A stretch of DNA of 52,948 nt from Acidimicrobiales bacterium (GCA_047638595.1 JBLIMJ010000004.1:1-52948), one strand, 5' to 3'; counted from the first letter of the stretch, positions 9,770-43,730 are shown. Notes: generated by a model not told the origin, from the letters alone. Numbers and translations are program-made.

Positions 9770-11269
9770 ATGTCTGGTACAATACACTCAATGATCACCA
9801 AGGAAGATATCCCTAAAGAAGTACGGTCTGTAGCGGAAACTCTTGAAAACGGTGGTTTTCAAGCGTACTTGGTTGGGGGGTGTGTGAGAGACTTACTTAT
9901 AGGTAAAACTCCAAAAGACTGGGACCTTACCACTGACGCACATCCTGAACAAATTCAAGGACTCTTTGGTGAAGACGAAACATTTTGCAACAATGACTTT
10001 GGGACTGTTGGGGTGAAGAATGAAGAAACAGAAGATGAGACACTCAAGATAATTGAAGTGACACCATACCGAACAGAAGGGACATACTCAGACGCACGAC
10101 GGCCTGACAAAGTAGAATTTGGGGTTTCGCTTGAAGAAGACCTCAAACGACGTGACTTTACCGTCAATGCCATCGCATATCGTGTCCACGATGAAAGTAC
10201 TGTTGATTTATTTGATGGAGTAGGAGACATAGAGAAAAAACGACTTAAAACCGTCGGGAACCCGAACGATCGCTTTACCGAAGACGCACTTCGTATGATG
10301 AGGGCGGTGCGTCTAGCTGCTCAACTGAATTTTGCCATTGAAGCAGGGACCATGACCTCTATCACTCAGAATCACAAGCAATTAAGTCGTATCTCAATAG
10401 AACGAATTGCTGATGAGTTCCTGAAAATAATTAATACGGACACACCAATGCAAGGAATTGTATTTCTAGAACGATTAGAGATGATTGAATACATTCTCCC
10501 TGAAATAAAGGACTCAATTGGCTGCGAACAGGGAGGTATTCATGCGTTTGATGTATATGAACACCTTCTTCGCACCCTCCAAGGCGCTGCAGATAAAGGT
10601 TTCTCTACAGAACTACGCCTTGCAGCACTCTTGCATGACATCGGAAAGCCAGCGACACGCACCATTGGTGGGAAGAACAAAGAGTATTCCTTCTTTGGGC
10701 ATGAGGTTGTAGGTGCACGAATGACGAGGAAGATCATGAAACGGCTTAAAATGCCGCGTGAACTGAGTCAAAATGTTGAGAATCTGGTGCGATGGCACAT
10801 GTTTTTCTCAGATCCTGACGAAATTACCCTTGCGGCGGTACGACGTACCATTGTGCGTATTGGAGAGGACCATATTGATAACCTTCTTAATCTCCGTATA
10901 TGTGACCGTATTGGTACCGGCCGACCTAAAGAACAGCCGTTTCGGTTCCGAAAGTACAAGGCTATGGTAGACGAAGCTCTAAGGGACCCTATCTCTGTAA
11001 AGCTTTTAAAGATCAATGGGGATACCATTATGGATATCACTGGGGAAAAGCCGGGGAAAACCATGGGATATGTACTGAATAGCCTCATGGAGGAGGTACT
11101 TGAGGACCCAGCTAAAAATGATAAAAAGTACCTAGAAACAAGGGTTTTAGAGCTCTACAAGCTCCCAGAAGCGACACTTGAGGCCTTATCTAAGGCAGGG
11201 AAGGAGAAACAAGCTGAAGAAGAAGCTAACGCACTCAAACAAATAGCTAAAGAACATAAGGTTGGATAG
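9770..11269 (+). CDS. cca: CCA-adding enzyme / tRNA nucleotidyltransferase with HD domain
   Basis: GGCVRDLLIGKTPKDWDLTT, RDFTVNA and HD motif LLHDIGKP. 499 aa. Confidence 0.8.
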   Translation: MSGTIHSMITKEDIPKEVRSVAETLENGGFQAYLVGGCVRDLLIGKTPKDWDLTTDAHPEQIQGLFGEDETFCNNDFGTVGVKNEETEDETLKIIEVTPYRTEGTYSDARRPDKVEFGVSLEEDLKRRDFTVNAIAYRVHDESTVDLFDGVGDIEKKRLKTVGNPNDRFTEDALRMMRAVRLAAQLNFAIEAGTMTSITQNHKQLSRISIERIADEFLKIINTDTPMQGIVFLERLEMIEYILPEIKDSIGCEQGGIHAFDVYEHLLRTLQGAADKGFSTELRLAALLHDIGKPATRTIGGKNKEYSFFGHEVVGARMTRKIMKRLKMPRELSQNVENLVRWHMFFSDPDEITLAAVRRTIVRIGEDHIDNLLNLRICDRIGTGRPKEQPFRFRKYKAMVDEALRDPISVKLLKINGDTIMDITGEKPGKTMGYVLNSLMEEVLEDPAKNDKKYLETRVLELYKLPEATLEALSKAGKEKQAEEEANALKQIAKEHKVG

Positions 11270-18250: not shown

Positions 18251-21200
18251 ATGCAAAAAGCGGGGGATCATTCCATTTCACGTATTCGTACTTTTGACGA
18301 CGATGTTGCCCGTGCCCGAGGAACGAAGACAACATCTACACCAAAACTAAAAAAAGAGCCAGCATCTGTACAACAGGTTACTGATTCACTTTTGGGAACA
18401 TCAACGAAAATTCCATCTTTAAAAAAAGAGAAGCTTGGTGAGGTACCTCAAATCAAAAGTACAAAAAATTTAAAACCCATTCCAAAAAAGGAGATACCTC
18501 CACCTCCGAAAATTGTTTCTATTCCAAAAAAGGATGATGCTAAAAAAACACACACCAAAAACTTTCCAGTTGAGGGAAAATCTTCTGATGATTTTTTAAC
18601 GCAATCAGCAAAACCTTCTGTTACACCTATTCCAGAAAAAGAATTAGGGGGTTCTAAATCTCCCGTCACTAAGATACCTCCACCTCCACAACTGTCTGTA
18701 GTACCAAAGAAGGAGAGGGGTGCTGATCACGTACGAACTAAAGACAAGCGAGTTACCGCCTCTGAAAAAGGGAGTATTGTTACTGTTCACAATACCGACC
18801 CAGATGCGAATGAAGGGGTGGTAAAAAAGAACACACATAGTGCGGAGGTAGATAAATTTAAAGAACATTCAAAAGTAATGCAGCAAACTGCTGATGACTT
18901 TCTGAAGAATAAATCCAAAAATGTAATCCCTGCACCCCCAACGCAGAAAAAAATCCCAAGGGGTATCGAGGAACATATTGAAAGTGCCAAGTTGGTAGCA
19001 TCTAAAAAGTCGCACTTAACCGATAGTGATACTGTACACGAAGTGACTAGTAGTGACTTTGGTGACGCTACTATCATCAGTGACCGAATAGAGCGACATA
19101 AACTATTTCCTGATTTAGTTGCTGCTACCCATTCATGGTTAGAAGGTGGTCACACAAATGCTTTAGATAAATATGAAACATCACAAACTGCAGCACAATC
19201 ACAGGTTTTACAGGTAGTAAAAAATGCACAGAAACAAAATACTTCGTCAAAAGAGGTGGTCGCGGTTGAAATGAAAAAGGAACTGCCACCTATTCCTGTC
19301 CCAAAAAAGGAGATACCTCCACCTCCGAAAATTGTTTCTATTCCAAAAAAGGATGATGCTAAAAAAACACACACCAAAAACTTTCCAGTTGAGGGAAAAT
19401 CTTCTGATGATTTTTTAACGCAATCAGCAAAACCTTCTGTTACACCTATTCCAGAAAAAGAATTAGGGGGTTCTAAATCTCCCGTCACTAAGATACCTCC
19501 ACCTCCACAACTGTCTGTAGTACCAAAGAAGCAAGTAGCAAAAACAGACATTACCCAGGTACCACCACAAGTTGAAACTTCACGGGAATCTACTAAGGCT
19601 GATATTCAAATCACTGAAAGTGACACATCTGCAGATACAGTAGTAACCACTACAAATAATCAGGTATCTGAAATTTCAGCCCCATCATTTATTGCATCAG
19701 ATGAAATAAATTTACCTCAGACGCAACAACAGCTGCCAGCAGAAAAAGTTGTAATTGAAGTTCCTCAAGTAGTTGAAATGAAAATTCCACCAGTACCTGA
19801 GGTGCACTGGGAACCGGAACCAATTGCTCCTCTAGAGGTTATTGAACACCTTGTTCCTACTCCACAAGAAGTTGACTATGGTCCTGAAGTTCCACAACCA
19901 ATGGTAGAAGCTCTGCAAGATACATCTACGATACCTCATGAGGTTGAAACTGTACGAACGCAAACTATCCCAGGAGTTGAAATACTCGCCCAAGATTTGG
20001 TATCTGCAACCCAACCTACTGAAGTACCAGAAGAACAATGGGAATCTACAGAGGAAACTTCTGTGGAGGTTGTCGAGCAGTTAGTGCCACACAATGTGGT
20101 AGTAACCAGAAAACAAACGATCTCAGATAAATCAAAGTGGCCTTCTGTTACTGCTGATGAACTTGAGGAAAGTTATGCAACCCTTAAGACAGTAAACGAA
20201 GATGTCTATCCTGAGGAAAGGGAGATAGCAGAGAACGCAGATATCTTTATTCCTCTTATCCAACAGGCATCACGACCAACATCAGATACTCAAGCTACCG
20301 ATTCTTTTGTTCCAAATTATACTGCTGAAATTCCACCAACGGTTCCACACCAGGAAGAACCACAGGTAAATGAACTCCTACAAACAGATCAGGTAGTACT
20401 GCCTACAGAAGTTATCGAGCAAATACCCGCATATGAGACACCTCAGTTTGTTCCCATAACCCTTCCTGATACCCAACCAATACAAACACAAACTGCGGAA
20501 GAAATGCCGGTGTACACAGAGGAAGTCGTTACGTCACTGACACCAGATGAACCATCAACATCTCTAGAGAGAATGCTTCCCGTTACTGACCTCGACAGCT
20601 TTATCCCCAGAATGGCAGCTGTTAGTGAATCAGTTCCACAAGAAAAACGAACCTTTAAACCAGCAGTTACCTCCGTATCTAGAGTACCGATATATGTTTA
20701 CCTACTAGTGATCATAGGTGCCTCCTTATTAGGTATTGGTACAAGCGTGTACTGGTTCACGAGTTCCACAGCTACTGAAGAGGCAGTGGTGATACGTATT
20801 CCATCCCTCTTTGCAGTAAACATCCAGATTCCTATACCACTTGAGGAAACAAAAGTAGGTACCCTCACCACAATTCTCAACGAGTCACTCGCAGCAAATG
20901 AGACCATACAGATATACCCAACTGTCACTGACGAAACTGGCCAGAGTCACCCTACTGATGTGCAAGAGCTTCTCTTTGCACTACAACTACGTGCACCGGG
21001 ATCGTTCACGAGGTCAATAAACGACATTGCTTTTGGAAGCTATAACGGTGCAAAACCTTTTGTGCTTATGAGTGTGACCAGTTTTGACACCGCATTTGCT
21101 GGCATGCTTGCATGGGAACCTGTTTTGAGTGAAGACTTATCTCCTTTGTTTGGAGATCCAGTGACTGAGTCATACGATCCATATGCACGGACTGAGACAC

Positions 21201-21370
21201 AGATACGTCCTGCATTCTTCCGAGACACCGTTATTGCAAATAAGAGTGCTCGTGTCCTTGTGGATACTGCAAACATTGAAAGGATTCTCTATTCCTTTGT
21301 GCAACCAAATCTCATTCTGATTACCAGCGATAGTGATACACTCAACGCAATCATCCCCCTTATCAAATAA
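18251..21370 (+). CDS. Large (1039 aa) K/P/E/T-rich protein with one predicted TM helix and a C-terminal globular region
   Basis: Long ORF with low-complexity N-terminal two-thirds. The TM segment is VPIYVYLLVIIGASLLGIGTSVYWF. No family recognised. Confidence 0.6.
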   Translation: MQKAGDHSISRIRTFDDDVARARGTKTTSTPKLKKEPASVQQVTDSLLGTSTKIPSLKKEKLGEVPQIKSTKNLKPIPKKEIPPPPKIVSIPKKDDAKKTHTKNFPVEGKSSDDFLTQSAKPSVTPIPEKELGGSKSPVTKIPPPPQLSVVPKKERGADHVRTKDKRVTASEKGSIVTVHNTDPDANEGVVKKNTHSAEVDKFKEHSKVMQQTADDFLKNKSKNVIPAPPTQKKIPRGIEEHIESAKLVASKKSHLTDSDTVHEVTSSDFGDATIISDRIERHKLFPDLVAATHSWLEGGHTNALDKYETSQTAAQSQVLQVVKNAQKQNTSSKEVVAVEMKKELPPIPVPKKEIPPPPKIVSIPKKDDAKKTHTKNFPVEGKSSDDFLTQSAKPSVTPIPEKELGGSKSPVTKIPPPPQLSVVPKKQVAKTDITQVPPQVETSRESTKADIQITESDTSADTVVTTTNNQVSEISAPSFIASDEINLPQTQQQLPAEKVVIEVPQVVEMKIPPVPEVHWEPEPIAPLEVIEHLVPTPQEVDYGPEVPQPMVEALQDTSTIPHEVETVRTQTIPGVEILAQDLVSATQPTEVPEEQWESTEETSVEVVEQLVPHNVVVTRKQTISDKSKWPSVTADELEESYATLKTVNEDVYPEEREIAENADIFIPLIQQASRPTSDTQATDSFVPNYTAEIPPTVPHQEEPQVNELLQTDQVVLPTEVIEQIPAYETPQFVPITLPDTQPIQTQTAEEMPVYTEEVVTSLTPDEPSTSLERMLPVTDLDSFIPRMAAVSESVPQEKRTFKPAVTSVSRVPIYVYLLVIIGASLLGIGTSVYWFTSSTATEEAVVIRIPSLFAVNIQIPIPLEETKVGTLTTILNESLAANETIQIYPTVTDETGQSHPTDVQELLFALQLRAPGSFTRSINDIAFGSYNGAKPFVLMSVTSFDTAFAGMLAWEPVLSEDLSPLFGDPVTESYDPYARTETQIRPAFFRDTVIANKSARVLVDTANIERILYSFVQPNLILITSDSDTLNAIIPLIK
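18482..18712 (+). repeat. 231-bp intragenic repeat, copy 1
   Basis: Read base by base, it is identical to 19301-19531. Confidence 0.9.
19301..19531 (+). repeat. 231-bp intragenic repeat, copy 2
   Basis: Identical to 18482-18712. The offset is 819 nt, which is in frame. Confidence 0.9.
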
Positions 21371-29572: not shown

Positions 29573-30457
29573 ATGTCAAATCCACAAACCAGAATTGCAG
29601 GAGCGTTATTCATTGGAGCGTTACTTATCTCAAGTGCACTCTTTATACGTTCATGGTCAGTCGAATCTGTCCCCGTTGTACACAACGTTGCTGTAGTGAC
29701 CGCAGCTCCTGAACGAACTGCAATTGCAGTTACTGATAAAAATAATGATGGAGTACCTGACTGGCAGGAAGCTTTGTTAGTAACAGAGGCAATGAATATC
29801 TCTGGGACCACAACTGCCTACACCGCCCCTGAAACTCTGACAGACCAATTTGCGTTAGAATTTTTCGAAGAGATGGTTCGTAACGAAAACTACGGGGAAT
29901 TCGGTGATACACCAGAAGAACTCGTACTACAGACAAGTGAGGCACTCGCGCGTGAAGCAAGAGATGTCCTTCTTGAGGGGAAAGACATTACTATCTCAAG
30001 CAACAACTCTATAGAAGCGCTGAGCCGATATGGAGAAGATGTTGCAATTATTATCGATACGTACTCCACACATGCGACTGAAAACGAGGCGAAGATTCTC
30101 GAGAGAGCACTTCGAGAACAAAGTGCAGAAGGGCTCGTGAAGCTTAATGATAATATAGCCGTATATACAAGCCTTTTAGAAGAAACACAAAAGCTTGCCG
30201 TTCCAGAGGTAATGAAAACTGAACATTTGAACTTACTCAACACCTACCAAGCACTCATCGCAGACATAACTGCCATGCAAACTGCTTTTGAAGATCCAAT
30301 GTATGCATTGTTGCGTCTCAAGCGCTACCAGGATGATGCTGCGGGACTCTATGCTTCTATTGTAAATATGTACACAGCGCTACTGAAGCATGACGCACAA
30401 TGGGACGAAGGGTCAGCTGTCTATTCACTTATTGGTATTAACACAGATAATCAATAG
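29573..30457 (+). CDS. Membrane-anchored hypothetical protein (first ORF of the T4SS-like cluster)
   Basis: N-terminal TM IAGALFIGALLISSALFI, with a helical acidic remainder. No family recognised. Confidence 0.5.
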   Translation: MSNPQTRIAGALFIGALLISSALFIRSWSVESVPVVHNVAVVTAAPERTAIAVTDKNNDGVPDWQEALLVTEAMNISGTTTAYTAPETLTDQFALEFFEEMVRNENYGEFGDTPEELVLQTSEALAREARDVLLEGKDITISSNNSIEALSRYGEDVAIIIDTYSTHATENEAKILERALREQSAEGLVKLNDNIAVYTSLLEETQKLAVPEVMKTEHLNLLNTYQALIADITAMQTAFEDPMYALLRLKRYQDDAAGLYASIVNMYTALLKHDAQWDEGSAVYSLIGINTDNQ

Positions 30458-30460
30458 CGT

Positions 30461-31933
30461 ATGTGGAGTAAATTTTTTAAAGTAATACAAACAAACGTAA
30501 GTGCACTTCTTATGATTGTACTTATGGCAAGCACTATCGCACTCACACCAATGACCCCTCAGGGGGAAGTCCAGAAGGCGGAAGCACTCTTTGGAATTGG
30601 CGATGCAGTTTTTGTTGTTGGAGGGAGCGGTACCATTCAAGAAACACTCAGCGCAGCATCAAACGCAATTACTGCAGGAATCCAAGAAGCATTTTTCATA
30701 AAAGAATTTACACTTGACCCTATCTTTCACGGACTAGCGAAGATGGTTCTCAAAAGCATGACTCAGAGTATCCTTACCTGGATTAACTCAGGATTCCAGG
30801 GGAGCCCAGCGTTTGTAACCGACCTTGGTCAATTCTTGCAAGACGCCGCAGACCAAGTAGTGGGGGACTTCATATACAACGATCCAGCACTCAACTTCCT
30901 ATGTAGTCCATTCCAGCTGGATGTAAAAATTGCTCTTGCTGAAACATACCAGGCGCAAAGCAGCGGGGAAGACTTCGCAAGTGAAGCACAATGTACCTTA
31001 AGCGATGTCACAGATAACGTGGAGGGATTCTTAAATGGGAGTTTCAGTCAAGGAGGTTGGGACAGCTGGTTTGAGGTGACGCAAAACCCTTCTAACACAC
31101 CAACAGGTGCTTACCTTGCAGCTGAGGCAGAGATGCATGCACGAATTGTTAATGAACAAGGGCAGGCTATTAAAGAACTTGACTGGGGTGATGGATTCCT
31201 CTCATTTAAGGTGTGTGACGACACCAATGGTTCAGGGAAAAACTGTAACATCAGCACACCTGGTACTGTTATTGCTAACCAAATCAACAAAACACTTGGT
31301 GCAGGACAAGATGAACTTATTGCAGCTGACGAGGTAAACGAAATCATCAGTGCGCTCTTTGCACAACTTGCGAAACAAGCAATTACAGGAATCAATGGGC
31401 TGCTTGGTCTTGGAGGATCTCAGTACTCAGACAGCTCATTTGGTGACGGTTCACAATCCTACCTTGATGCACTTGGTAACGAGCGAGGAGGGACCAGTGG
31501 GTTAGATCCAATGCTAAAAGCAATAGAAAATGAAGAGGAACATTATGACTTACAACGTGACGTACTTATCATCGTAGCTGGAGCTGAAGCTGACCTTCAG
31601 AAAAACCAAGCTTCAAGCTCCTGTGCCCAGCTACAAAATGTGCGCATGCCACGCGGTTTAGTTACTGCAGGAGAAATCTCTATATTACAACAATTTGTAT
31701 CGTCATCAACTATTGCAGAATTAACCGCCTTGAGTGCGCAATACCAAGATGCTGAGACTCCATCTGAACAATTAGAAATTATTGAAAAGTACAACAAACT
31801 AAAGACTGATGGCGCCTTAAAGACTCAAATTGATAATGTGCGACTAGATCTGTACATCAAAAATGAAATCGCGCAGATGGTAGACAAATTAGAGAATGAT
31901 ATAGACTCTGCAGTGCAGTCCTGCAATAGGTAG
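30461..31933 (+). CDS. Secreted/anchored hypothetical protein
   Basis: N-terminal hydrophobic segment. 490 aa. It starts 4 nt after the previous stop. Confidence 0.5.
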   Translation: MWSKFFKVIQTNVSALLMIVLMASTIALTPMTPQGEVQKAEALFGIGDAVFVVGGSGTIQETLSAASNAITAGIQEAFFIKEFTLDPIFHGLAKMVLKSMTQSILTWINSGFQGSPAFVTDLGQFLQDAADQVVGDFIYNDPALNFLCSPFQLDVKIALAETYQAQSSGEDFASEAQCTLSDVTDNVEGFLNGSFSQGGWDSWFEVTQNPSNTPTGAYLAAEAEMHARIVNEQGQAIKELDWGDGFLSFKVCDDTNGSGKNCNISTPGTVIANQINKTLGAGQDELIAADEVNEIISALFAQLAKQAITGINGLLGLGGSQYSDSSFGDGSQSYLDALGNERGGTSGLDPMLKAIENEEEHYDLQRDVLIIVAGAEADLQKNQASSSCAQLQNVRMPRGLVTAGEISILQQFVSSSTIAELTALSAQYQDAETPSEQLEIIEKYNKLKTDGALKTQIDNVRLDLYIKNEIAQMVDKLENDIDSAVQSCNR

Positions 31934-32204: not shown

Positions 32205-34469
32205 ATGGGTATTAAAGTGCACTTGCATAAGTATCTCTTTTTGAGGTTATTCGTGTTTTTTACATGTATTTTATTTCTATCCAATATATTCGCTCCATTC
32301 GCTCAAGCTGATCATGTTGCTGGACATGAACGTGCCCCACTTATAGGTACTCCGGGGGGTGGAACACCAGTTGTTGCTCCTGTTGTCACTCCGGTAGTCC
32401 CCTACGAAGATGCAATAATGCGAGCTGCTAAAAATCCACCTCCTGCTGTTGTTGAGACTATAGGCACCCAACCCTCAGGCTCGGCAAGATTTATTTATGG
32501 AATCTCCCTTGGTATAGGTGGAAAAATTGTTGCCATTGGTGGCCAGCTATTTGACGGTGCAGTCAACCACTTTGTTCGCGGTCTTGGACAATTCTACCTG
32601 GGGCCATTAGGGGGAGCGGTCAACGCCTTATGGGAAATAATACGTGATGTATTCAACATCCTCTTTATTTTTAGCTTAGTGTATATTGGGCTGCGTACCA
32701 TTCTTGACTCCGAAGACTCCGGGACCAAGAAGTTGCTTGGGATGCTCATAGCTGCAGCACTATTGATTAATTTTAGTTTGTATTTTACAAAGGTAATTGT
32801 TGACATATCGAATTTCACTGCAGTTGCTATACACAATACCGCTATTGGTGGTCTGGAAGGAGCTTATTCCGTTACAGGAACATTGATTAAGGTTGAAGAC
32901 AGAAGTATTGCTGGCGCATTTTTGGAAATTGTTGCACTCGGAAGCTGGTTTAACCAAGACTTAGGATCAAAAGAAGAGACACATACCGTCGTATTTTCAA
33001 TCTTCATGCTTTTCTTCCTTGGTCTTACTGGTTTTGTACTTGCGTATGGGGCTCTGATGCTTTTTGCTCGATTCATCGCTATAACTATATACATGATTTT
33101 TTCACCACTAATGTTCTTAGGATGGATTGTTCCTCAGTGGAAAAAGTTTGGCACCAAATGGTGGCAAGGTTTTCTCTCATACTGCTTCTATGCTCCTGCA
33201 TTTATTTTCATGCTATATGTCACCCTCTATGCCCTCGTTCAAATAAAGGAGGGTCTAAAGGACGGTGGTGCAGAAGTTACTTCAGGTAGTGGATTTGCTG
33301 ATTACTTTCTCAACGGAACAGGGTTTAACTCTTTCATACTCTACGCTGTAGGGATTGGGTTTATGTTCGCAGCATTTAGAGTATCAAAAATAATGAGTGA
33401 TGCTGGTGCAGGAAGTTCCATGATGTTTGCAGACAAGATGTCACGTAAACTGACAACAGGAGCTGCTAGGTACGCTGGGGGGAAAGTAGGAGGTGGAGCA
33501 GGAAGAGGTGCGGGTCGGGCATGGTCTGCGTACCGTGGTGGTCAACACCAAGAAACAATAGACAATATAAATGCCAGGGAAAAGAGAACAGGTACATCAA
33601 CTTCGCTAGATCAATGGCGGCGCACACGTGCAGAAGCTGGTATGAAAAAAAATCATATGGGAGCCAGCTCATTCCAAGAAAGAAAAGACACGGGTAAGAC
33701 TGCGGGTGCGCGGGCCGAGACAGCACATAATGCATACAAATCACAACAAGCAATCATTAGTGCTAGCACACCAATTGAGCGCGAAACTGCTGTTGCAAAA
33801 GCAGTGGGTTCTGATCTAGTTGAAATGACGAAGACAAAAGAAGGACGTAAAGCGTTAATTGCAAATGCTGGATCCATTAGTGATGATAAAATGAAGGAGA
33901 TAATGAAGTCCGATGCTTCTCCTGAGATTAAAGATAAGTTGTCTAAAGCAAGGAAGACCCAAGTTTCAGATAATCTTGTCGTGGAACACGGCTCTGGACC
34001 TGGCAGTACTTTGGAAGATGTTATTCACAAGGCAGATTCTTCAGAATTAAAAACCATTGGGTTTGATGTTGCTCATGACAATGCTGCGAGGCTCACTTCA
34101 AAACAAATTGAAGACTGGAAAGACTTAACGCCGACACAAAAAAGATATCTGAAGAAGAAGCGCGCTGATGATTTGGTTGCTGTGTTTAATGGCCATAGTG
34201 GAGGGAGTCCGTCAGCAATATTTAATCAATTTAAAAATGACACTGAAAGATCTAAATTGCCAAAAGATATACTTACGAATTCAAACTCTGTTCAGTATTT
34301 AAATAAAAACATTCTTACAAAGATAGTGGATGATGATGGTATCGAGGATACTGACAGACGACTTATTCGTCAAAATATTGAGGGGGCTTTCCCTGCAGGA
34401 ACCACGCAAGGGGACGAATGGAGAAAGTGGTTTAGCAAGAATAATGCAGGACAACGGTATCCAACATGA
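32205..34469 (+). CDS. TrbL/VirB6-like polytopic T4SS membrane protein with a long basic C-terminal extension
   Basis: Signal-like N-terminus and at least 6 hydrophobic helices (e.g. LWEIIRDVFNILFIFSLVYIGL, LLGMLIAAALLINFSLYF). The pattern and context match TrbL/VirB6. Confidence 0.6.
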   Translation: MGIKVHLHKYLFLRLFVFFTCILFLSNIFAPFAQADHVAGHERAPLIGTPGGGTPVVAPVVTPVVPYEDAIMRAAKNPPPAVVETIGTQPSGSARFIYGISLGIGGKIVAIGGQLFDGAVNHFVRGLGQFYLGPLGGAVNALWEIIRDVFNILFIFSLVYIGLRTILDSEDSGTKKLLGMLIAAALLINFSLYFTKVIVDISNFTAVAIHNTAIGGLEGAYSVTGTLIKVEDRSIAGAFLEIVALGSWFNQDLGSKEETHTVVFSIFMLFFLGLTGFVLAYGALMLFARFIAITIYMIFSPLMFLGWIVPQWKKFGTKWWQGFLSYCFYAPAFIFMLYVTLYALVQIKEGLKDGGAEVTSGSGFADYFLNGTGFNSFILYAVGIGFMFAAFRVSKIMSDAGAGSSMMFADKMSRKLTTGAARYAGGKVGGGAGRGAGRAWSAYRGGQHQETIDNINAREKRTGTSTSLDQWRRTRAEAGMKKNHMGASSFQERKDTGKTAGARAETAHNAYKSQQAIISASTPIERETAVAKAVGSDLVEMTKTKEGRKALIANAGSISDDKMKEIMKSDASPEIKDKLSKARKTQVSDNLVVEHGSGPGSTLEDVIHKADSSELKTIGFDVAHDNAARLTSKQIEDWKDLTPTQKRYLKKKRADDLVAVFNGHSGGSPSAIFNQFKNDTERSKLPKDILTNSNSVQYLNKNILTKIVDDDGIEDTDRRLIRQNIEGAFPAGTTQGDEWRKWFSKNNAGQRYPT

Positions 34470-35449
34470 TAAAAATAACGGAAGAAAACAGAATAGCTAA
34501 ATACCGTGAGGCAGATGAGGTGACTAGGACACTGTACATTAGTGATGTAGTATCTGCGACATTGGAGAAAAAATTTCCCGATTATGACAAGAAGGAAACA
34601 TATCAAATTATTGGCGACACTATTCTCGGATTCTACAAAACAAAAGATTTGCCTATACTACTGCAAACTCAGTTAGATATAACACCTCAACAATCACTAC
34701 AAATCACAAGTGAACTTATAGAATTTCTTAGCCCAGTAGTTGCACGGGAGCAAGCTGAGGTCGAAACTCCTCAGAATGCTGCGCCTCAACAGCAACCCTT
34801 CCAAGCAGCTATGCCCGCAGAAGCGCGGGCGGAGGTTTTTCGAGCTATGGCCGGAGATCCACAGCCAACTGCAATACCTGAGCCTCAAGTAGCTCCTGTT
34901 GCACAGCCTCAGGTTCCTCAGCAACCAACAGTTCCCACAGCTCCTTTACAACCCGTACCCCAACAGGTACAACCTATAGCACAGCCAGTGCCTGTACAAC
35001 CTGTGACACCACAAGCACAGTCCGTACCTCAATCAATACCGACACAGCCCGCAGCACCTCAACAACCTGTTGCACCGCAGACAATTCAGCAACAACCCGT
35101 CACTCCTCCACAGCCTCAGATAGCAATGCAAAGACAACCCGAGCAAGTTGCACAACCTGTTGCATCACAAACACCACCAAACCTTCCTACGCAACAACCA
35201 CAAAGTTTTATCCCGACCCATATCCCCACACAACCAGAACCAGCCCAACAGCCAGCTGCACCTGAGGTATCTGCAGAACCTATTGACCGTATCCATGGAT
35301 ACGGTGCATACCGAGGACAGTATCCTGATTCAGCAGGCGCGCAAGCACACACTGAAGCAATTATCCGCGGTGCATCACAAGACGACCTACTAAAGAGACA
35401 GCCAAAACTTGCTGACATGCCCACATATGTGGAAGATCAGCAGCAATAA
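34466..35449 (+). CDS. P/Q-rich protein (about 200 aa of QP/PQ low complexity)
   Basis: ATGA overlap with the upstream ORF. The globular N-terminal ~100 aa are followed by QPVPQQVQPIAQPVPVQP... tracts. Confidence 0.5.
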   Translation: MIKITEENRIAKYREADEVTRTLYISDVVSATLEKKFPDYDKKETYQIIGDTILGFYKTKDLPILLQTQLDITPQQSLQITSELIEFLSPVVAREQAEVETPQNAAPQQQPFQAAMPAEARAEVFRAMAGDPQPTAIPEPQVAPVAQPQVPQQPTVPTAPLQPVPQQVQPIAQPVPVQPVTPQAQSVPQSIPTQPAAPQQPVAPQTIQQQPVTPPQPQIAMQRQPEQVAQPVASQTPPNLPTQQPQSFIPTHIPTQPEPAQQPAAPEVSAEPIDRIHGYGAYRGQYPDSAGAQAHTEAIIRGASQDDLLKRQPKLADMPTYVEDQQQ

Positions 35450-35451
35450 AA

Positions 35452-35504
35452 GTAGGTTGTATAAAAGACTGTGAGCGTAGCTCACAGTCTTTTATACAAC
35501 CTAC
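35452..35504 (+). terminator. 25-bp perfect hairpin
   Basis: gtaggttgtataaaagactgtgagc-gta-gctcacagtcttttatacaacctac. Confidence 0.6.
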
Positions 35505-35541: not shown

Positions 35542-35952
35542 ATGCGATTTGAGGTTCCTCAATTTATCGAAATAGAAGACAAGATCTTCGGTCCTTTTAC
35601 CTGGAGACAATTCATTTACCTTTGTGGGGGAGTGAGTGTTGCGGCTATTACCTTTATAACTATGCATGTGGTTATCTTTTTGATTATAGGAATACCTGTG
35701 GGTGGACTTTCATTTCTTCTTGCATTTTACCCCGTGAACAATAGACCTTTTTCTAAATTCTTAGAGTCTATATTTAACTTTTATCGTTCAGAAAGAATCT
35801 ACAAATGGCGACGGGCAAAACAAAATGTGTACAGAGCTGAAAATCATACCTCTGAAGACCTAATGCCCGTATTAGCACCGAAAAAAAGTCCTGGTGGCAT
35901 CAACTCGCTTGCTCGAGAGTTAGAATTGCGTGCAATGCAAAAAAGTGAATAG
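35542..35952 (+). CDS. PrgI-family (VirB3-like) small T4SS membrane protein
   Basis: N-terminal signature MRFEVPQFIEIEDKIFGPFTWRQFIYL followed by two TM helices. Confidence 0.65.
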   Translation: MRFEVPQFIEIEDKIFGPFTWRQFIYLCGGVSVAAITFITMHVVIFLIIGIPVGGLSFLLAFYPVNNRPFSKFLESIFNFYRSERIYKWRRAKQNVYRAENHTSEDLMPVLAPKKSPGGINSLARELELRAMQKSE

Positions 35953-36669: not shown

Positions 36670-38481
36670 ATGGGAATTCTTGACTTACTAAAACCAAAAA
36701 ATACAACAACTGCTGAGATAGATGACTTATCTCGAGATATTTCTGATGCTTTGATGACACTTGACGACATCCTCGCGCCTTCAGGTATTGAAGTCAGTCC
36801 ACGCAACATAAACATAAGTGGTACCTATGCGCGGACTTTTTTCACTATCTCGTACCCTCGGTACTTGAACGATGGCTGGTTAGAACCTATTTTAAATATT
36901 GAAAAAGAAATCGATGTTTCTATTTTTATACACCCTATTGACACCGCAGAAACATTGAAGAAATTCCAAAAGAAGGTTGCCGAAGTGCAAAGTCAGATCA
37001 ATGTACGGGCAGAAAAGGGAATGGTACGTGACCCCCAGCTAGAAGCTGCCTTCCGAAACCTTGAAGATCTCCGCGACAAACTACAGCAAGCTGAAGAAAA
37101 ACTGTTTAACGTTGGCATGTATCTTACGGTCTACAGTGCAGACCTCGATTCTTTAAATAAAACTGAACGCGAGATAAAGAGTATCCTCGACTCACGATTG
37201 ATTTATATAAAGCCTGCGCAGTTTGAACAAAAAGAAGGTATTAAAAGTGTTTTGCCTTTCATGGACGATCAACTCCTGGTACACAGCAAATTCAACTCGT
37301 CACCTCTTTCAAGTTTCTTTCCGTTCACTTCTTTTGACCTTACTTCTGACACAGGGATTCTCTACGGTATCAATAGACACAATTCTTCGTTGGTACTTTT
37401 TGATCGTTATCAACTCACCAACTACAATTCAGTTACCTTCGCAACCTCTGGAGCGGGGAAGTCGTACACGACAAAGCTTGAGATACTCCGATCACTCATG
37501 TTTGGTACTGAAGTGATTGTGATTGACCCTGAGAAAGAGTACGAATATCTCGCAGAAGCAACAGGAGGACGATTCTTTAACATCTCTCTTTCTTCTTCTC
37601 ACCACATCAATCCTTTTGACTTACCAAATCCACAAGAAGACGAAAACCCTGAGGATGTATTGCGCTCACACATCATTGAGCTTATCGGACTGTTTCGACT
37701 GATGCTCGGCGGTATCTCACCTGAAGAAGAAACACTCATCGACCAAGCAATTGTGGAAACATATTCACTCAAAGACATCACCGGAACAGCAGACTTTAGC
37801 AACCTCGAATCTCCTCTACTTTCAGACTTTGAGATGGTACTTGCTGGTATGGAAGGAAGTGGTTCACTTGTTTCTCGACTACAAAAGTACACTACCGGTA
37901 CCTGGTCTGGCTTTATGAACAAACCAACCAACGTAGACATACACCAGAAATTTGTAGTCTTTTCTCTACGTGATATGGAGGATGAGCTCAAGACGGTTGC
38001 GATGTACATCATCACACACCATATCTGGGGAGCTATTCGTCGTCGTATCGTAAAACGACTTCTGGTAATTGACGAGGCATGGTGGATGATGAAAAGTGAT
38101 GACACTGCGTCATTCCTCTTCATGCTCGCTAAACGCGGACGAAAGTACTATCTTGGTCTTTCAACCATCACCCAGGACGTTGATGACTTCTTACGGTCCC
38201 CTTACGGTGTGCCGATGATTACAAACTCTTCGTTACAACTTCTGATGAAGCAGTCTCCGACAGCTATTGATAATATTCAAAGTACTTTTAACTTAACCGA
38301 CGAAGAGAAGTTCCTTCTTCTAGAGTCAAACGTGGGGGAAGGAATTTTCTTTGCAGGACTCAAGCATGTCGCTATTCGTGTTATCGCTTCATACACTGAA
38401 GATCAAATCATCACCTCTGACCCTTCACAAATTTTACAAATCCAAAAGGCGCGCGAAGAACTTCGTGATGCACAAACCTAA
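36670..38481 (+). CDS. virB4: VirB4/TrsE-type T4SS ATPase
   Basis: N-domain YARTFFTISYPRYLNDGWL, Walker A FATSGAGKSYT and Walker B RLLVIDEAWWMM. 603 aa. Confidence 0.8.
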   Translation: MGILDLLKPKNTTTAEIDDLSRDISDALMTLDDILAPSGIEVSPRNINISGTYARTFFTISYPRYLNDGWLEPILNIEKEIDVSIFIHPIDTAETLKKFQKKVAEVQSQINVRAEKGMVRDPQLEAAFRNLEDLRDKLQQAEEKLFNVGMYLTVYSADLDSLNKTEREIKSILDSRLIYIKPAQFEQKEGIKSVLPFMDDQLLVHSKFNSSPLSSFFPFTSFDLTSDTGILYGINRHNSSLVLFDRYQLTNYNSVTFATSGAGKSYTTKLEILRSLMFGTEVIVIDPEKEYEYLAEATGGRFFNISLSSSHHINPFDLPNPQEDENPEDVLRSHIIELIGLFRLMLGGISPEEETLIDQAIVETYSLKDITGTADFSNLESPLLSDFEMVLAGMEGSGSLVSRLQKYTTGTWSGFMNKPTNVDIHQKFVVFSLRDMEDELKTVAMYIITHHIWGAIRRRIVKRLLVIDEAWWMMKSDDTASFLFMLAKRGRKYYLGLSTITQDVDDFLRSPYGVPMITNSSLQLLMKQSPTAIDNIQSTFNLTDEEKFLLLESNVGEGIFFAGLKHVAIRVIASYTEDQIITSDPSQILQIQKAREELRDAQT

Positions 38482-39185: not shown

Positions 39186-40166
39186 ATGCGGAACACTTTT
39201 TTACTATTTTTCTTCATTTTAAACATATCTTTCTTTGCATTCCCTGGGGAAGGTACTGCTCAATTCGGTAATCCTATCGATCCCTCTAGTGCATCAACAC
39301 TGGTTTTTTCACCCCGATATCCTGAACCAAATGAACAAATCACTATTGAACTCAATGACTACAGTATCAATACCAGTGGAGCAGCCATCCAATGGTTTAT
39401 AGACGGAACTGAGGAAGTGCTGGTACAGAATGAACGATCGATTTCTATTACCGCTGGGGAACTTGGGAGTAAAACTATTGTCACCGCTATTACAACTCTC
39501 GCCAACGGTTCACGTATTGAAGCTCAAAAAAACATCACTCCAATTCGTATCGATATGCTCATCGAGGCTGACACCCTTGCACCTTCTTTTTATAAAGGAC
39601 GAACCATACCGTCAACTGGAAGCTCCATTCAGGTAACTGCACTGCCATTTACTGGAGTAGACCGCAATCCAGAAACTTTTTCTTATGTATGGCGTGTGGA
39701 TGATAAAGTACAAGGAGGAGGGTCTCGATATGGAAGAAACTCTATTACGTTCACTTCAGGCTTTGAAAAAAATATCTTAGTTTCTGTTGATGTCATCGAT
39801 GATGCAGGGAACATTCTCAGCAGTGAGTCAACCTACATTCCACTAGCAAATCCGGAATTACATTTTTACGAAATAAACCCTCTGCGTGGCATGTCTGAAA
39901 TCGCTATGAACAATGGATTTATCTTTTTAGGAGACGAGATTAAGATACATGCAGTTCCTTATTTTGTAGACAAAAGTCTAGTAACGAACAACCCCCACAT
40001 AGAATGGAAGTTAAATAACCAAACTATTCAAAATCCGAGTACTAACCCCCAAGAAATTACCCTGCGCAAAGAAGGGGACAGTGGTTCGTTTGCTATTGAA
40101 TTCCACATCCGTAACCTACGACAATTATTGCAAGGTGTGAAGGATTCTGTAACTATTAACTTCTAG
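39186..40166 (+). CDS. Secreted hypothetical protein
   Basis: Start moved to MRNTFLLFFFILNISFFAFPGEG (signal peptide). No family recognised. Confidence 0.45.
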   Translation: MRNTFLLFFFILNISFFAFPGEGTAQFGNPIDPSSASTLVFSPRYPEPNEQITIELNDYSINTSGAAIQWFIDGTEEVLVQNERSISITAGELGSKTIVTAITTLANGSRIEAQKNITPIRIDMLIEADTLAPSFYKGRTIPSTGSSIQVTALPFTGVDRNPETFSYVWRVDDKVQGGGSRYGRNSITFTSGFEKNILVSVDVIDDAGNILSSESTYIPLANPELHFYEINPLRGMSEIAMNNGFIFLGDEIKIHAVPYFVDKSLVTNNPHIEWKLNNQTIQNPSTNPQEITLRKEGDSGSFAIEFHIRNLRQLLQGVKDSVTINF

Positions 40167-40170
40167 ATTT

Positions 40171-41256
40171 ATGTATTTTGTTACACTATTTATACTTATT
40201 GGGCTGAGTGTCACACAAATTGTTCTCGCTGCACCAAATGAATTTGTTCCCTTAGTAGGGATTCCGTATTTAGTTGTTCCTCAAGGGGAGGAGTTAGGGC
40301 TTGGTAATTACATAAATGCACTCTACAAGATATCCATCAGTGTTGCAGCATTCTTGGCAGTGGTAAAGATTATTTTTGCAGGAGTGAAGTACATGATCTC
40401 TGACATTGTTCCAACTAAAGAACAAGCGAAGAAAGACATACGCGGGGCACTACTTGGTTTGCTCATTGTCATTGGTGCTGTACTTATTTTGACAACCATC
40501 AACCCTCAGTTAACTGGCTTAGATGCGTTGCAAAAAATACCGGGGTTCAGTGTAAAAACAGGGGCACACGAAGGACGTTCTGCAGATCAAATACGTATAG
40601 AGGAGATGTGTAAATCGAAATTTAAATGTAAAAGAGATGTGTGCGGTTTTATAGATGACTCTATAAATGATACATGTAAAGAAGATTGTGAAAATGACAA
40701 AAATGGTGTTTTTACCCCGTCACTTCTACCAGGAGGTGTTTGTACCTATGCTGGTGAAGACACTGGAACAGCAGCAGAGGGAGACAAGGTACCGTTAAGG
40801 AAGCTTGATGAACTTGCCCAGAGTAGATGTCCAGATAGTATTGAAAAAAGTACATTTGTTATATCAACATCGAATGATGAAAATGCTTCATGTATGTCTG
40901 TAGATGAGGTATTGAAAAAAACAGAAATCAGTTCTGGTAGTCCTGTTGCATTTTCAGTACTCCCATTCACTGATGACGTTATGAGACAGAGTAGGAATTT
41001 TCCACTTAGTAATTTAAAAATTGGTGACGTAATTGGATATCTGAGTTTAGACATAACTTCTGATAAGGGGGCAGAAATATTAAGTGCCTATGATGATGAA
41101 GGGGGCTATGTAGATGCAATTTTAACACCCGCCTGTGGCAAAGGTAACAAAATTATTAGAAAGGAAACTACCACTGGTGAAAGAATTGAAAATTCTTGGT
41201 GGGGTCCTTTTGGGACTACTCAAGAAACTGCACATTACTTTTGTGTGAAAAAATAA
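40171..41256 (+). CDS. VirB2/TrbC-like pilin module fused to a 10-Cys C-terminal domain (paralog 1)
   Basis: Signal peptide ...QIVLA|APNE, then two hydrophobic helices (ISISVAAFLAVVKIIFAG; ALLGLLIVIGAVLILTT), then about 210 aa with 10 Cys. Confidence 0.55.
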   Translation: MYFVTLFILIGLSVTQIVLAAPNEFVPLVGIPYLVVPQGEELGLGNYINALYKISISVAAFLAVVKIIFAGVKYMISDIVPTKEQAKKDIRGALLGLLIVIGAVLILTTINPQLTGLDALQKIPGFSVKTGAHEGRSADQIRIEEMCKSKFKCKRDVCGFIDDSINDTCKEDCENDKNGVFTPSLLPGGVCTYAGEDTGTAAEGDKVPLRKLDELAQSRCPDSIEKSTFVISTSNDENASCMSVDEVLKKTEISSGSPVAFSVLPFTDDVMRQSRNFPLSNLKIGDVIGYLSLDITSDKGAEILSAYDDEGGYVDAILTPACGKGNKIIRKETTTGERIENSWWGPFGTTQETAHYFCVKK

Positions 41257-41316
41257 TATGAATCGATCTATAATTGCAAGGTGTGAAGGATTCTGTAACT
41301 ATTAACTTCTAGATTT

Positions 41317-42393
41317 ATGTATTTTGTTACACTATTTATACTTATTGGGCTGAGTGTCACACAAATTGTTCTCGCTGCACCGAATGAATTTGTTCCCTTA
41401 GTAGGGATTCCGTATTTAGTTGTTCCTCAAGGGGAGGAGTTAGGGCTTGGTAATTATATAAATGCACTCTATAAGATATCCATCAGTGTTGCTGCATTCT
41501 TGGCAGTAGTAAAGATTATTTTTGCTGGAGTGAAGTACATGATCTCTGACATTGTTCCAACTAAAGAACAAGCAAAGAAAGACATACGTGGTGCACTACT
41601 TGGCTTACTCATTGTCATTGGTGCTGTACTTATTTTGACAACCATCAACCCTCAGTTAACTGGCTTAGATGCGTTGCAAAAAATACCGGGGTTCAGTGTA
41701 AAAACAGGGGCACACGAAGGACGTTCTGCAGATCAAATACGTATAGAGGAGATGTGTAAATCCACGTTTGGTTGCTCTAAAGATGTGTGCGGTTTTGTAG
41801 ATGACTCTATATATGATACATGTAAAGAAGATTGTGAAAATGACAAAAATGGTGTTTTTACCCCGTCACTTCTACCAGGAGGCGTTTGTACCTATGTTGG
41901 TAACGAAAGAGAAAATTCAGGGGACGATCTGGAATTACGCTTTCTTGGTACAATTTCTGAGGATAAATGTGTAGGTACTGATGAAGGGAAGATATACACC
42001 CTGGCAACAGCTGGTGAAGTCACTTCTTCATGTATGTCCACAGACGAAATAGCAAGACAAATAGAATTGGATTCTGGTGCTCCTATTGTATTTTCAATAT
42101 TGCCAATTACCCGCGCGGTGGATACGCATACCCGGGAAAGGTCGATTTTTAGTACAGGACTAGACGATCTTGAAGTTGACAACATGGTTGGATTATTACG
42201 ATTAGATTCAAGTTCAGAACAAGGTAAAAAAATGTTAGAAGATAAAGGTGGAAGAAGTCAATTTATAGAAGATGTCTTACAGCCAGCTTGCGGTGAGGTT
42301 AGTGAAGGTTATAAAATAATCGATTACAATACTAACGAACGTGTAGGATATGACAACCATAGGATAATACATTTTTACTGTATAAAAGAGTAA
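41317..42393 (+). CDS. VirB2/TrbC-like pilin module fused to a 10-Cys C-terminal domain (paralog 2)
   Basis: The first 148 aa are identical to paralog 1. The C-terminal domain is strongly diverged, but all 10 Cys are retained. Confidence 0.55.
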   Translation: MYFVTLFILIGLSVTQIVLAAPNEFVPLVGIPYLVVPQGEELGLGNYINALYKISISVAAFLAVVKIIFAGVKYMISDIVPTKEQAKKDIRGALLGLLIVIGAVLILTTINPQLTGLDALQKIPGFSVKTGAHEGRSADQIRIEEMCKSTFGCSKDVCGFVDDSIYDTCKEDCENDKNGVFTPSLLPGGVCTYVGNERENSGDDLELRFLGTISEDKCVGTDEGKIYTLATAGEVTSSCMSTDEIARQIELDSGAPIVFSILPITRAVDTHTRERSIFSTGLDDLEVDNMVGLLRLDSSSEQGKKMLEDKGGRSQFIEDVLQPACGEVSEGYKIIDYNTNERVGYDNHRIIHFYCIKE

Positions 42394-42456
42394 AATTTTT
42401 ACTGTTTATAGCACTTCCTTTATAATGCATCTTAATAAGTTATACTTAAAATACTT

Positions 42457-43644
42457 ATGAATCGATCTATAATAATAACCACTGGAATCATAATTCTCCT
42501 ACTTGTATTAGGGGTATGGATATACTTGATGTTTTTTGGAGCACCAGAAAATAAAGAGGAGGTCTTTACCAATTTTGGTTTCAGGATACAACCTCAAGAG
42601 GTAACTATCATCCCTGACACCAATACAGGCAATGTCAGTCCTCTGGTGGACACTCAAACAGATGCCTTAAGACAACTCACCACTCGCCCTGTTGCAGGGT
42701 TTGCGTTTGCCTCAACATCTGAAGGAGAAGCGGTTCGCTATGTTGAAAGAGGGACGGGGCATATATATGAAATCAATCTCGCTACTGGTGTAGAAAGTGC
42801 TCTTTCACGAACAACCATCCCTCAAGTAAACGAAGCAGTTTTCTCCCATGACGCGGAGGTGGTGGCACTCATTTCTCATGAAAGATACCAGTCAGAAGTT
42901 TTCGTAGGTACTCTAGGCAACAATATAAACCTTACTGGTATCAGCCTCCAGCCAAACGCTTCAAATATCTCATTTACCTTAGAGAATGAGGTGCAGTACA
43001 CAATTGCTGCAAATGGCACCACCAAAGGATACCGACACAACATCGATACTTTAGTGCAAACAGAATTGTTTTCCATGAACTACACAAACCTCGACGTCGG
43101 GTGGGGCAATGGTTTAGAAAAAATCTTTTTAGCAACCAAGCCAGCGCAAGGATTTGAAGGTTTTATGTATACTATTGAGAATAACATCCTGACACCTGTG
43201 GCTTTTTCTGCACAAGGACTATCCGCTCTCTTTACAAACACATACATTCTTACCTCTTTCATCCAAGGAGATACTTACAGCTCTGCGGTGGTTACTACTG
43301 CTACACAAGAAAGACTAGAACTTCCAATTTTAGCGCTTAAGGAAAAATGTGTACCAGATACAACTGATGAATTCTTAATATGGTGTGCTGCGTCACTAAA
43401 TAACCAACCTGCTACATTTGGGGAAGATTGGTATAAAGGAACTGTAATTTCAGAAGACTCCATTTGGCTCATAGATCCCTTAGCACAAACGGCAGATGTC
43501 TATGCAAACCTTGGGAGCTTATCTGGCAGAACCATAGATGTAAAAGAAATAGACATGAACACAAAAGGAACCTTGCTCTCATTTGTTAATAAGGCCGATC
43601 AAACCCTTTGGCTCTATGACATCTTTGCCGATATCAAGTTCTAA
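42457..43644 (+). CDS. Membrane-anchored hypothetical protein (possibly beta-propeller-like)
   Basis: N-terminal TM IIITTGIIILLLVLGVWIYLMFF. The segment RYVERGTGHIYEINLATG is PD40/TolB-like. Assignment is weak. Confidence 0.4.
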   Translation: MNRSIIITTGIIILLLVLGVWIYLMFFGAPENKEEVFTNFGFRIQPQEVTIIPDTNTGNVSPLVDTQTDALRQLTTRPVAGFAFASTSEGEAVRYVERGTGHIYEINLATGVESALSRTTIPQVNEAVFSHDAEVVALISHERYQSEVFVGTLGNNINLTGISLQPNASNISFTLENEVQYTIAANGTTKGYRHNIDTLVQTELFSMNYTNLDVGWGNGLEKIFLATKPAQGFEGFMYTIENNILTPVAFSAQGLSALFTNTYILTSFIQGDTYSSAVVTTATQERLELPILALKEKCVPDTTDEFLIWCAASLNNQPATFGEDWYKGTVISEDSIWLIDPLAQTADVYANLGSLSGRTIDVKEIDMNTKGTLLSFVNKADQTLWLYDIFADIKF

Positions 43645-43692: not shown

Positions 43693-43730
43693 TAAAACTC
43701 TCTATATCATTAATGATATAGAGAGTTTTA
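43693..43730 (+). terminator. 38-bp perfect palindrome closing the T4SS-like cluster
   Basis: taaaactctctatatcatt / aatgatatagagagtttta. Confidence 0.6.

Follow-up and report, generated by a model that had tools for sequence, protein, structure and literature searches.

Patescibacteria, ultra-small bacteria with a lifestyle of attachment to host cells, account for much of the diversity of bacteria. This text concerns a pair of pilin-like genes, here called copy A and copy B, in a type IV secretion system (T4SS) cluster on a stretch of 52,948 nucleotides (nt) of DNA (JBLIMJ010000004.1:1-52948, assembly GCA_047638595.1), referred to as the window; all coordinates are those of the whole window. 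The pair is probably the product of a recent duplication and a recombinational mosaic, in which two old tails stand behind one VirB2-like pilin core. Arrays of VirB2 genes are common in Patescibacteria and lie near virB4 (Microb Genom 2025, PMC12102498). According to the retrieved passages of that paper the arrays are highly variable throughout, with a mean amino acid (aa) identity of 25% and a maximum of 54%. Genetic tests have been made in one species, Southlakia epibionticum, which cannot grow as an epibiont without its T4SS and pilin series (Cell 2023, PMC10633639). A second group of systems is found in Anaplasma phagocytophilum, A. marginale and Bartonella, where tandem T4SS pilin paralogues also stand beside virB4. 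Here the retrieved passages of PMC3556328 describe copy numbers that vary by strain and a conserved core of two helices, with diversity concentrated in the hypervariable terminal parts; it has been proposed that the pilins form a surface organelle that varies.

As far as the retrieved passages of PMC12102498 and PMC3556328 go, both the pilin arrays of Patescibacteria and the clusters of T4SS pilin paralogues of Anaplasma and Bartonella are thus known from the literature. The window shares with the Patescibacteria arrays its PF18895-type pilins beside virB4 and prgI and close to dnaA, and its pair agrees with the pattern of at least two pilin genes, either in tandem or with one non-pilin gene between them. 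Neither a relaxase nor a coupling protein can be made out in the vicinity, and a role in host interaction has been proposed for such arrays. Unlike them, the pair is not divergent throughout: the two proteins are 65% identical, residues 1-148 are 100% identical, the breakpoint is sharp and the junction is intact. Neither homogenisation of a module by gene conversion nor a large cysteine-rich (Cys-rich) C-terminal domain is described in the passages of PMC12102498 retrieved by keyword. The Anaplasma and Bartonella VirB2 proteins differ in being only ∼100-120 aa long, with short hypervariable segments and no appended domain of 230 aa, and they belong to diderm intracellular pathogens that face adaptive immunity; neither a module homogenised at the nucleotide level nor a fresh junction is reported in the retrieved passages of PMC3556328. 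What appears to be new at this locus, in that it occurs in none of the retrieved passages, is a nucleotide-homogenised module with exchangeable large Cys-rich tails, evidence that the tails differ by recombination, and an intact birth junction.

The anatomy of the locus was determined by listing open reading frames (ORFs), by repeat finding and by blastn. Copies A and B are both complete and lie adjacent, head to tail, between an upstream gene (Y) and a downstream gene (Z), as follows:

39186..40166, plus strand: gene Y, conserved cluster protein; its 3' end is the left end of the duplicated unit
40127..40755, plus strand: copy 1 of the high-identity tract, 629 nt, with the tail of Y, signal peptide, pilin module and first Cys cluster
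40171..41256, plus strand: pilin A, 361 aa; stop codon 1 nt before the relic of the Z start
40756..41256, plus strand: divergent C-half of A, codons 196-361; 32% aa identity to B, dS ∼1.2, dN 0.62
41257..41274, plus strand: junction relic of Z, T plus the first 17 nt of Z, ATGAATCGATCTATAAT; 100% copy of 42456-42473 (repeat finding, blastn)
41273..41316, plus strand: junction relic of Y, the 44 nt before the pilin ATG (3' end of Y, stop, ATTT); 100% copy of 40127-40170
41317..42393, plus strand: pilin B, 358 aa; signal peptide and module as in A, outer domain diverged
41902..42393, plus strand: divergent C-half of B (from the alignment to A, dN/dS and the breakpoint)
42394..42456, plus strand: spacer between pilin B and Z, 63 nt; motif TTATACTTA at 42440-42449
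42457..43644, plus strand: gene Z, conserved cluster protein with an N-terminal transmembrane segment; its first 17 nt are the right end of the duplicated unit

A preliminary description of the window had proposed a tandem pilin duplication with an exact junction, on the grounds that one sequence occurs both at the junction and at the real start of Z, and this is borne out. The sequence TATGAATCGATCTATAAT is found twice, at 41257-41274 and at 42456-42473, the latter being the true start of Z (42457), and 40127-40170 is identical to 41273-41316, comprising the last 41 nt of Y with its stop and then the ATTT spacer. The junction thus holds copies of 17 nt of Z and 44 nt of Y, and the repeat unit is 1,146 nt. 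The tracts 40127-40755 and 41273-41901 are 95.9% identical over 629 nt, by blastn and by the list of differences. Position 17 of Z is joined to the point 44 nt before the pilin ATG in Y, and the two sides share only a 2-nt AT microhomology at 41273-41274. A head-to-tail unit, a novel junction and 2 nt in common are what tandem duplication by illegitimate recombination leaves behind, and a join at AT alone is the signature of illegitimate, microhomology-type recombination. The 3' spacers up to the start of Z are unlike, with 1 nt after A and 63 nt after B.

Divergence between the two copies is not uniform along the gene but steps at codon 195. Codons 1-148 encode the same protein in A and B, with exactly 11 nucleotide differences (about a dozen had been counted by eye), all in third positions and all silent. 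With synonymous sites making up 106/444 of all sites, 11 silent changes out of 11 have p ∼1e-7 (arithmetic on Nei-Gojobori site counts), and the pilin module is under purifying selection. This part of the preliminary description stands, although selection is not the whole of the matter: the module is only 45-79% identical at the aa level between species, and because of this the near-identity of the N-halves within one genome also reflects recency or gene conversion. Residues 149-195 remain close (40/47 identical), and from residue 196 on only 49/155 (32%) are identical, with five indel blocks, again as described earlier. A recombination breakpoint, suspected near codon 195, falls exactly there, after nt 585: by maximum chi-square the nucleotide difference is 4.4% on its left and 46% on its right, and 0/1000 permutations reach this value.

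Rates of nonsynonymous (dN) and synonymous (dS) substitution were compared by the Nei-Gojobori method in codon windows, which was the check that the preliminary description had suggested. For codons 1-148, dS is 0.11 and dN is 0. For codons 196 to the end, dS is ∼1.2, near saturation, and dN is 0.62, giving a ratio (omega) of ∼0.5; a value of ∼1.1 occurs in the window of codons 196-250 only. An alignment at 32% identity might inflate dS, and the comparison was for this reason repeated on aligned identical amino acids alone. Here the codon differs at 11/145 positions in the N-half vs 22/48 in the C-half (Fisher p = 2e-8), where full saturation would give ∼31/48. Silent sites have therefore diverged 6-10 times as far in the C-half as in the N-half. 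Positive selection could not produce such an excess at silent sites, so that the tails must be far older than the heads, and the silent sites indicate that the C-halves are old alleles or cassettes joined by recombination and did not diversify in place. The preliminary description had left two options for this half, diversifying selection or a swapped cassette; the second is favoured and runaway diversifying selection is rejected. Both tails look native, as far as composition can tell: their GC contents are alike, as is the GC content at third codon positions (GC3, 23-26%), and neither measure gives a sign of foreign origin for either tail. All 10 Cys of the outer domain of A align with those of B.

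The N-half is a mosaic in its own right. Its 11 silent changes all lie within codons 22-97, a patch of 226 nt (permutation p = 0.002), with no changes in the upstream 44+4 nt, in codons 1-21 or in codons 98-148, and a dense patch of change of 11 nt follows at codons 149-155. Polarising the 11 silent differences with an outgroup was tried and given up, as the closest module, that of relative L006, is 68% identical at the aa level and saturated at silent sites.

Clues to the age of the duplication come from the two relics at the junction, of Z (18 nt) and of Y (44+4 nt), which carry zero changes. At the silent divergence of the C-half an unconstrained 18-mer would have stayed intact with p < 1e-4, and even at the dS of the N-half the relics and spacer, 66 nt together, should have acquired ∼4 changes (p ∼0.01; both by arithmetic). 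Gene conversion could not maintain the relic of Z, because it is flanked by unrelated sequences. The closest relative, L006 (Patescibacteria bacterium UBA7435; VirB4 89% and YidC 86% identical), has the order Y, single pilin, Z, yidC, and the tandem is therefore the derived state. Taken together these data suggest that the duplication is very recent. A young junction next to saturated tails would in turn mean that the divergence of the tails predates the duplication and that recombination then united them. Each of the two 3' contexts is also present in relatives as a natural arrangement: L065, like A, has its stop codon 1 nt ahead of the Z start, and L006, L062 and L008, like B, have a spacer of ∼60 nt with TATACTTA.

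Some smaller features of the junction and the spacers deserve mention. The junction creates an ORF of 15 codons (MNRSIIARCEGFCNY*) at 41258-41305, which begins 1 nt past the stop of pilin A and ends 11 nt short of the ATG of pilin B, and it also yields a perfect TATAAT at 41269-41274, 43 nt upstream of pilin B. These could provide coupling or a new promoter for copy B. In a scan for promoters and terminators, promoter-like sites were not enriched over shuffled sequences (28 vs 25.6), and for this reason the TATAAT is only remarked on here and not claimed as a promoter. The last codons of pilin B (ATTTTTACTGTATAAAA, 42371-42387) recur with 82% identity in the spacer at 42395-42411, 24 nt downstream, which suggests that a short stretch was duplicated locally at the end of the gene. 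The motif (G)[TA]TATACTTA is found 10-16 nt upstream of the Z start in the window (42440-42449) and in L006, L062 and L008, where it is kept across species though the spacers are otherwise unalignable, and it is absent from the junction behind copy A. It may serve Z as a -10 element or as a signal for translation. Because the motif is conserved upstream of Z in these three relatives, the 63-nt spacer after B would be the ancestral-type flank.

Both proteins match the Pfam family PF18895 (T4SS_pilin) at E about 3e-4 (2.8e-4 for A) over residues 46-109, covering 64/71 model positions, with a score of 21.3 bits where the Pfam gathering cut-off is 26.6. In the alignment of homologues, 41/48 match the same family at E <= 1e-3, the best at 2e-7. 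Copy A consists of a cleavable signal peptide (residues 1-21), a VirB2-like hairpin of two helices (∼44-110) and a Cys-rich outer domain (126-361). Hydropathy peaks at residues 1-23, 47-80 and 88-117, with the short basic loop SDIVPTKEQAKKDIRG, and AlphaFold2 (AF2) places helices at 2-19, 44-76 and 83-110 with confidence values (pLDDT) of 77-87. A signal peptide, two hydrophobic helices and a short basic loop are what characterises VirB2, and from these features A and B are predicted to be VirB2-like T4SS pilins (PF18895-type) of Patescibacteria. The earlier label "pilin" can be kept in this sense, and not in that of a type IV pilus pilin.

The outer domain of each protein is ∼230 aa long, contains 10 Cys and is alpha/beta according to AF2 and hydropathy analysis. 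Across species it shows a proximal Cys cluster and a C-terminal set of strands (...GY...EG.ELL...C...YYCVK) around a hypervariable middle. In VirB2 both termini face outward, and from this topology the outer domain should face outward as well. A profile search of PDB sequences gave no solved relatives, and Foldseek found no PDB match below E = 0.7 with either the full-length model (AF2 pLDDT 70) or the model of the C-domain (pLDDT 57). When the C-domain of A was compared by phmmer with 1.84 billion representative proteins, only 4 matches were returned, one of them copy B, and no domain family could be built. By these searches the outer domain appears to be without detectable relatives outside this clade.

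To see how common such pairs are, 138 fetched loci were surveyed with a hidden Markov model of the pilin module. Two such pilins within the cluster were found in 10 distinct genomes, the window included. The usual order is pilin-Z-pilin; in L044 the two pilins are adjacent. In 8/10 of these genomes, the window again included, the modules of the pair are 93-100% identical at the nucleotide level over 300-400 nt. The identities between the modules of each pair are:

L001: 99.7% over 350 nt
L002: 95% over 302 nt
L003: 95.8% over 400 nt
L005/L062: 93-94.5% over ∼310-366 nt
L008: 99.7% over 391 nt
L028: 100% over 313 nt
L044: 100% over 326 nt
window: 95.7% over 632 nt

In the module-identical pairs of relatives, signal peptide and tail are unalignable. 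The pairs of L015 and L022 have modules that are not homogenised and have escaped concerted evolution. Signal peptides of the pilin in position 2 are recognisably orthologous across L001, L002 and L015; the copies in positions 1 and 2 must therefore be old and their modules repeatedly homogenised. Paralogues are closer to each other than to their orthologues, and the tracts of 93-100% identity end in unalignable flanks, which points to family-wide concerted evolution, by gene conversion, of the pilin module. The pair in the window is unlike all the old pairs in that its signal peptide and upstream flank are identical.

The locus L044, from a metagenome-assembled genome (MAG) of Nomurabacteria, is of particular value for comparison. 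Here the 22 nt before pilin 1 (9838-9859; the end of Z and the ATG) recur before pilin 2 (10700-10721) with 86% identity, and the signal peptides of the pair differ while the 326-nt module is 100% identical. L044 would thus be a tandem of greater age, in which the junction has decayed, and would represent an intermediate stage of what is seen in the window. The loci can be arranged as a putative series in the birth of an array, in which the window with its intact junction is young, L044 is older and the pilin-Z-pilin pairs are ancient.

Among the relatives, the slots around Z are filled in different ways. A pilin stands only before Z in L006, L064, L065 and L069, only after Z in L018, L067, L068 and L070-L072, and in both flanking slots in L001-L003, L008, L028 and L062. 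As either or both slots may be occupied depending on the lineage, gain and loss at the two positions must be frequent. In several relatives the contig breaks off at the pilin module or within it (L004 and L005 with their start, L060 and L063 with their end), and others end in Y (L059, L061, L066). Contig ends at the pilin are consistent with an exact intragenomic repeat or with strain heterogeneity breaking the assemblies, and identical modules of 300-600 nt would explain why metagenomic contigs frequently break at this gene.

The data from the relatives also bear on a different history, in which the tandem is old, its tails diverged in place and repeated conversion events hold the 5' 629 nt close to identity. 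Conversion of this kind evidently operates in the family, as the ancient position-1 and position-2 paralogues of relatives have modules that are 93-100% identical, L044 has a perfectly identical module beside a decayed junction, and the identical and silently changed patches of the N-half resemble overlapping conversion tracts. We nevertheless regard an old tandem as unlikely. Conversion has no homology to guide it at the relic of Z (41257-41274), which is still 100% identical, whereas it should be unrecognisable at the silent divergence of the C-half; the identical signal peptide and upstream flank do not fit an old pair, nor does the single copy in the closest relative. A second history, a recent duplicate whose distal domain then underwent runaway positive selection in place, accounts for the extremely fast evolution of the outer domains (that of A having 4 relatives in 1.84 billion proteins) and for the omega of ∼1.1 in codons 196-250. 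It is hardly credible in view of silent sites that are 6-10 times more diverged in the C-half and near saturation there, an overall omega of ∼0.5 in that half, a step at codon 195 without any gradient, and 3' spacers that are unrelated in length (1 vs 63 nt).

It is also necessary to ask whether the tandem exists at all, or whether the assembly strung together the haplotypes of two strains at a pilin locus that is single-copy and hypervariable. The sequence is evidently a metagenomic contig, A and B resemble alleles of one gene, and the broken contigs of relatives (L004, L005, L060, L063) indicate that the locus is hard to assemble. An artefact would, however, have to account for a junction between Z+17 and Y-44 that is novel and would be present in neither haplotype. 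The shared overlaps, of ∼18 nt and of ∼110 nt up to the first single-nucleotide difference, differ in length, and neither has the k-1 size that a de Bruijn bubble would give; moreover, tandem or arrayed pilins are genuine both in a relative (L044) and in the literature (retrieved passages of PMC12102498). We consider an artefact very improbable, and a recent duplication that carries a mosaic of two old tails remains the reading that we prefer. Several points weigh against it. No other contig with these proteins was found in the searched collections, so that the donor allele, single-copy strains and copy-number variation are unobserved, and the junction comes from assembled sequence. The routes to the present arrangement in one step and in two steps, which are set out below, fit equally well. 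A and B are predicted pilins with a Pfam score under the gathering cut-off; the outer domain has no recognisable fold or function, with low AF2 confidence and no PDB matches. Natural competence is documented for Saccharibacteria, another class of this phylum (PMC10633639), and only there, not for this lineage. In the JGI metagenomes the best relative of VirB4 is 90% identical, and the codon-degenerate DNA pattern specific to the module of A and B has no match.

The following course of events would tie together the geometry of the duplication, the breakpoint, the contrast in age, the purifying selection, the homogenised modules and the T4SS context. A head-to-tail duplication of 1,146 bp arose by illegitimate recombination at the 2-nt microhomology, from Z+17 to Y-44, and most likely two divergent alleles from related strains came to lie side by side. 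This may have happened in a single step, if incoming DNA was integrated with one homologous and one illegitimate end, or by a duplication between sister strands followed by homologous replacement of one tail. Transformation might have been the source of the second allele. The common module would let both proteins use the same VirB4-driven machine and co-assemble, and the alternative outer domains might give different surface or host-binding specificities. The locus suggests an architecture with a constant polymerising core and exchangeable, disulfide-rich outer domains, in which diversity comes about by recombination and not by point mutation. A further idea, which can be put forward only tentatively and is more doubtful than the duplication itself, is that the module serves both as assembly unit and as recombination handle, with hypervariable outer-domain cassettes being exchanged among paralogues and acquired from other strains through transformation. 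If true, cells could change or widen the range of host surfaces that the T4SS filament recognises, and the window would show the birth of a new array member.

Other systems in which a conserved head is combined with variable tails offer partial parallels. In Neisseria, gene conversion between pilE and pilS varies the pilin, using promoterless, silent, partial cassettes and an initiation site that depends on a guanine quadruplex (G4). The likeness lies in a conserved N-terminal part for polymerisation and a variable C-terminal part that contains disulfides, with variants made by recombination, and to this may be added that in Neisseria natural transformation contributes donor DNA. The pilus of Neisseria is, however, a type IV pilus with a class III signal peptide, whereas here both copies are complete genes with identical heads. 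Silent cassettes of the pilE/pilS type were searched for and rejected: tblastn and blastn of A and B gave no further partial copies in the 52.9-kb window, and neither A nor B is itself partial, both being full ORFs whose 5' regions are identical. In Helicobacter pylori, chimeras of the babA/babB type have 5' parts that are kept near-identical by gene conversion and ligand-binding parts that diverge, so that recombination reshuffles tails behind heads in a similar manner; unlike the present pair, these are outer-membrane adhesins at dispersed loci, not secretion-system pilins and not in tandem. Homology-facilitated illegitimate recombination is known from natural transformation in Acinetobacter and Streptococcus pneumoniae. 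With one homologous end and one end of microhomology, it has the geometry needed to place a foreign allele beside the resident one. For the window this process would be one candidate, no donor having been identified, and unequal exchange between sister chromosomes with allelic replacement fits equally well. A diversity-generating retroelement was likewise considered and rejected, as the 30 larger ORFs of the window that were scanned contain no reverse transcriptase domain, there is no template repeat of the variable half, and the differences between A and B include indels and all base classes and are not adenine-specific.

As to the wider surroundings, the pilins lie within a T4SS cluster near virB4, in an arrangement with identical synteny in relatives. 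PrgI, TraC-like and VirB4 genes lie 1.7-4.6 kb upstream of the pilins on the same strand, and yidC, rnpA, dnaA and dnaN follow downstream of the pilins and Z. Two of the upstream genes are:

35542..35952, plus strand: PrgI/VirB3-like gene, Pfam PF12666 PrgI, E = 2.6e-11; same position in L001 and L002; start of the conserved cluster
36670..38481, plus strand: VirB4-like ATPase, 603 aa, Pfam P-loop_TraG, E = 1e-26; 78-90% identical to syntenic 603-aa proteins of Patescibacteria MAGs

The arrangement is syntenic with MAGs of Kaiserbacteria, Nomurabacteria and Paceibacteria type, and the locus is a chromosomal, origin-proximal T4SS of Patescibacteria of the kind described in the retrieved passages of PMC12102498. 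Orthologues of Y, 40-60% identical, stand directly upstream of the pilin in L001, L003, L006, L008 and L028, and the C-terminal peptide of Y, LLQGVKDSVTINF, is also kept in L060. Z has syntenic orthologues in relatives that are 30-58% identical. Neither Y nor Z has matches in Pfam or the PDB.

Elsewhere in the window, a 352-aa ORF at 8645-9703 consists of five Pfam INT_rpt repeats (PF14882, "integrase repeat unit"; E = 2e-39). Large ORFs of up to 1039 aa without a Pfam match are found at 18251-21370, 29573-30457, 30461-31933, 32205-34469 and 34466-35449. The T4SS genes begin shortly after the last two, whose syntenic counterparts in relatives show weak similarity (28-38%); these two may be divergent T4SS components, e.g. 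VirB6-like. Finally, the T4SS and pilin block is flanked by two perfect hairpins, one at 35455-35501 with a 20-bp stem before the PrgI gene, and one at 43693-43730 with a 17-bp stem after Z, in the 230-nt gap between Z and yidC. Both look like terminators.

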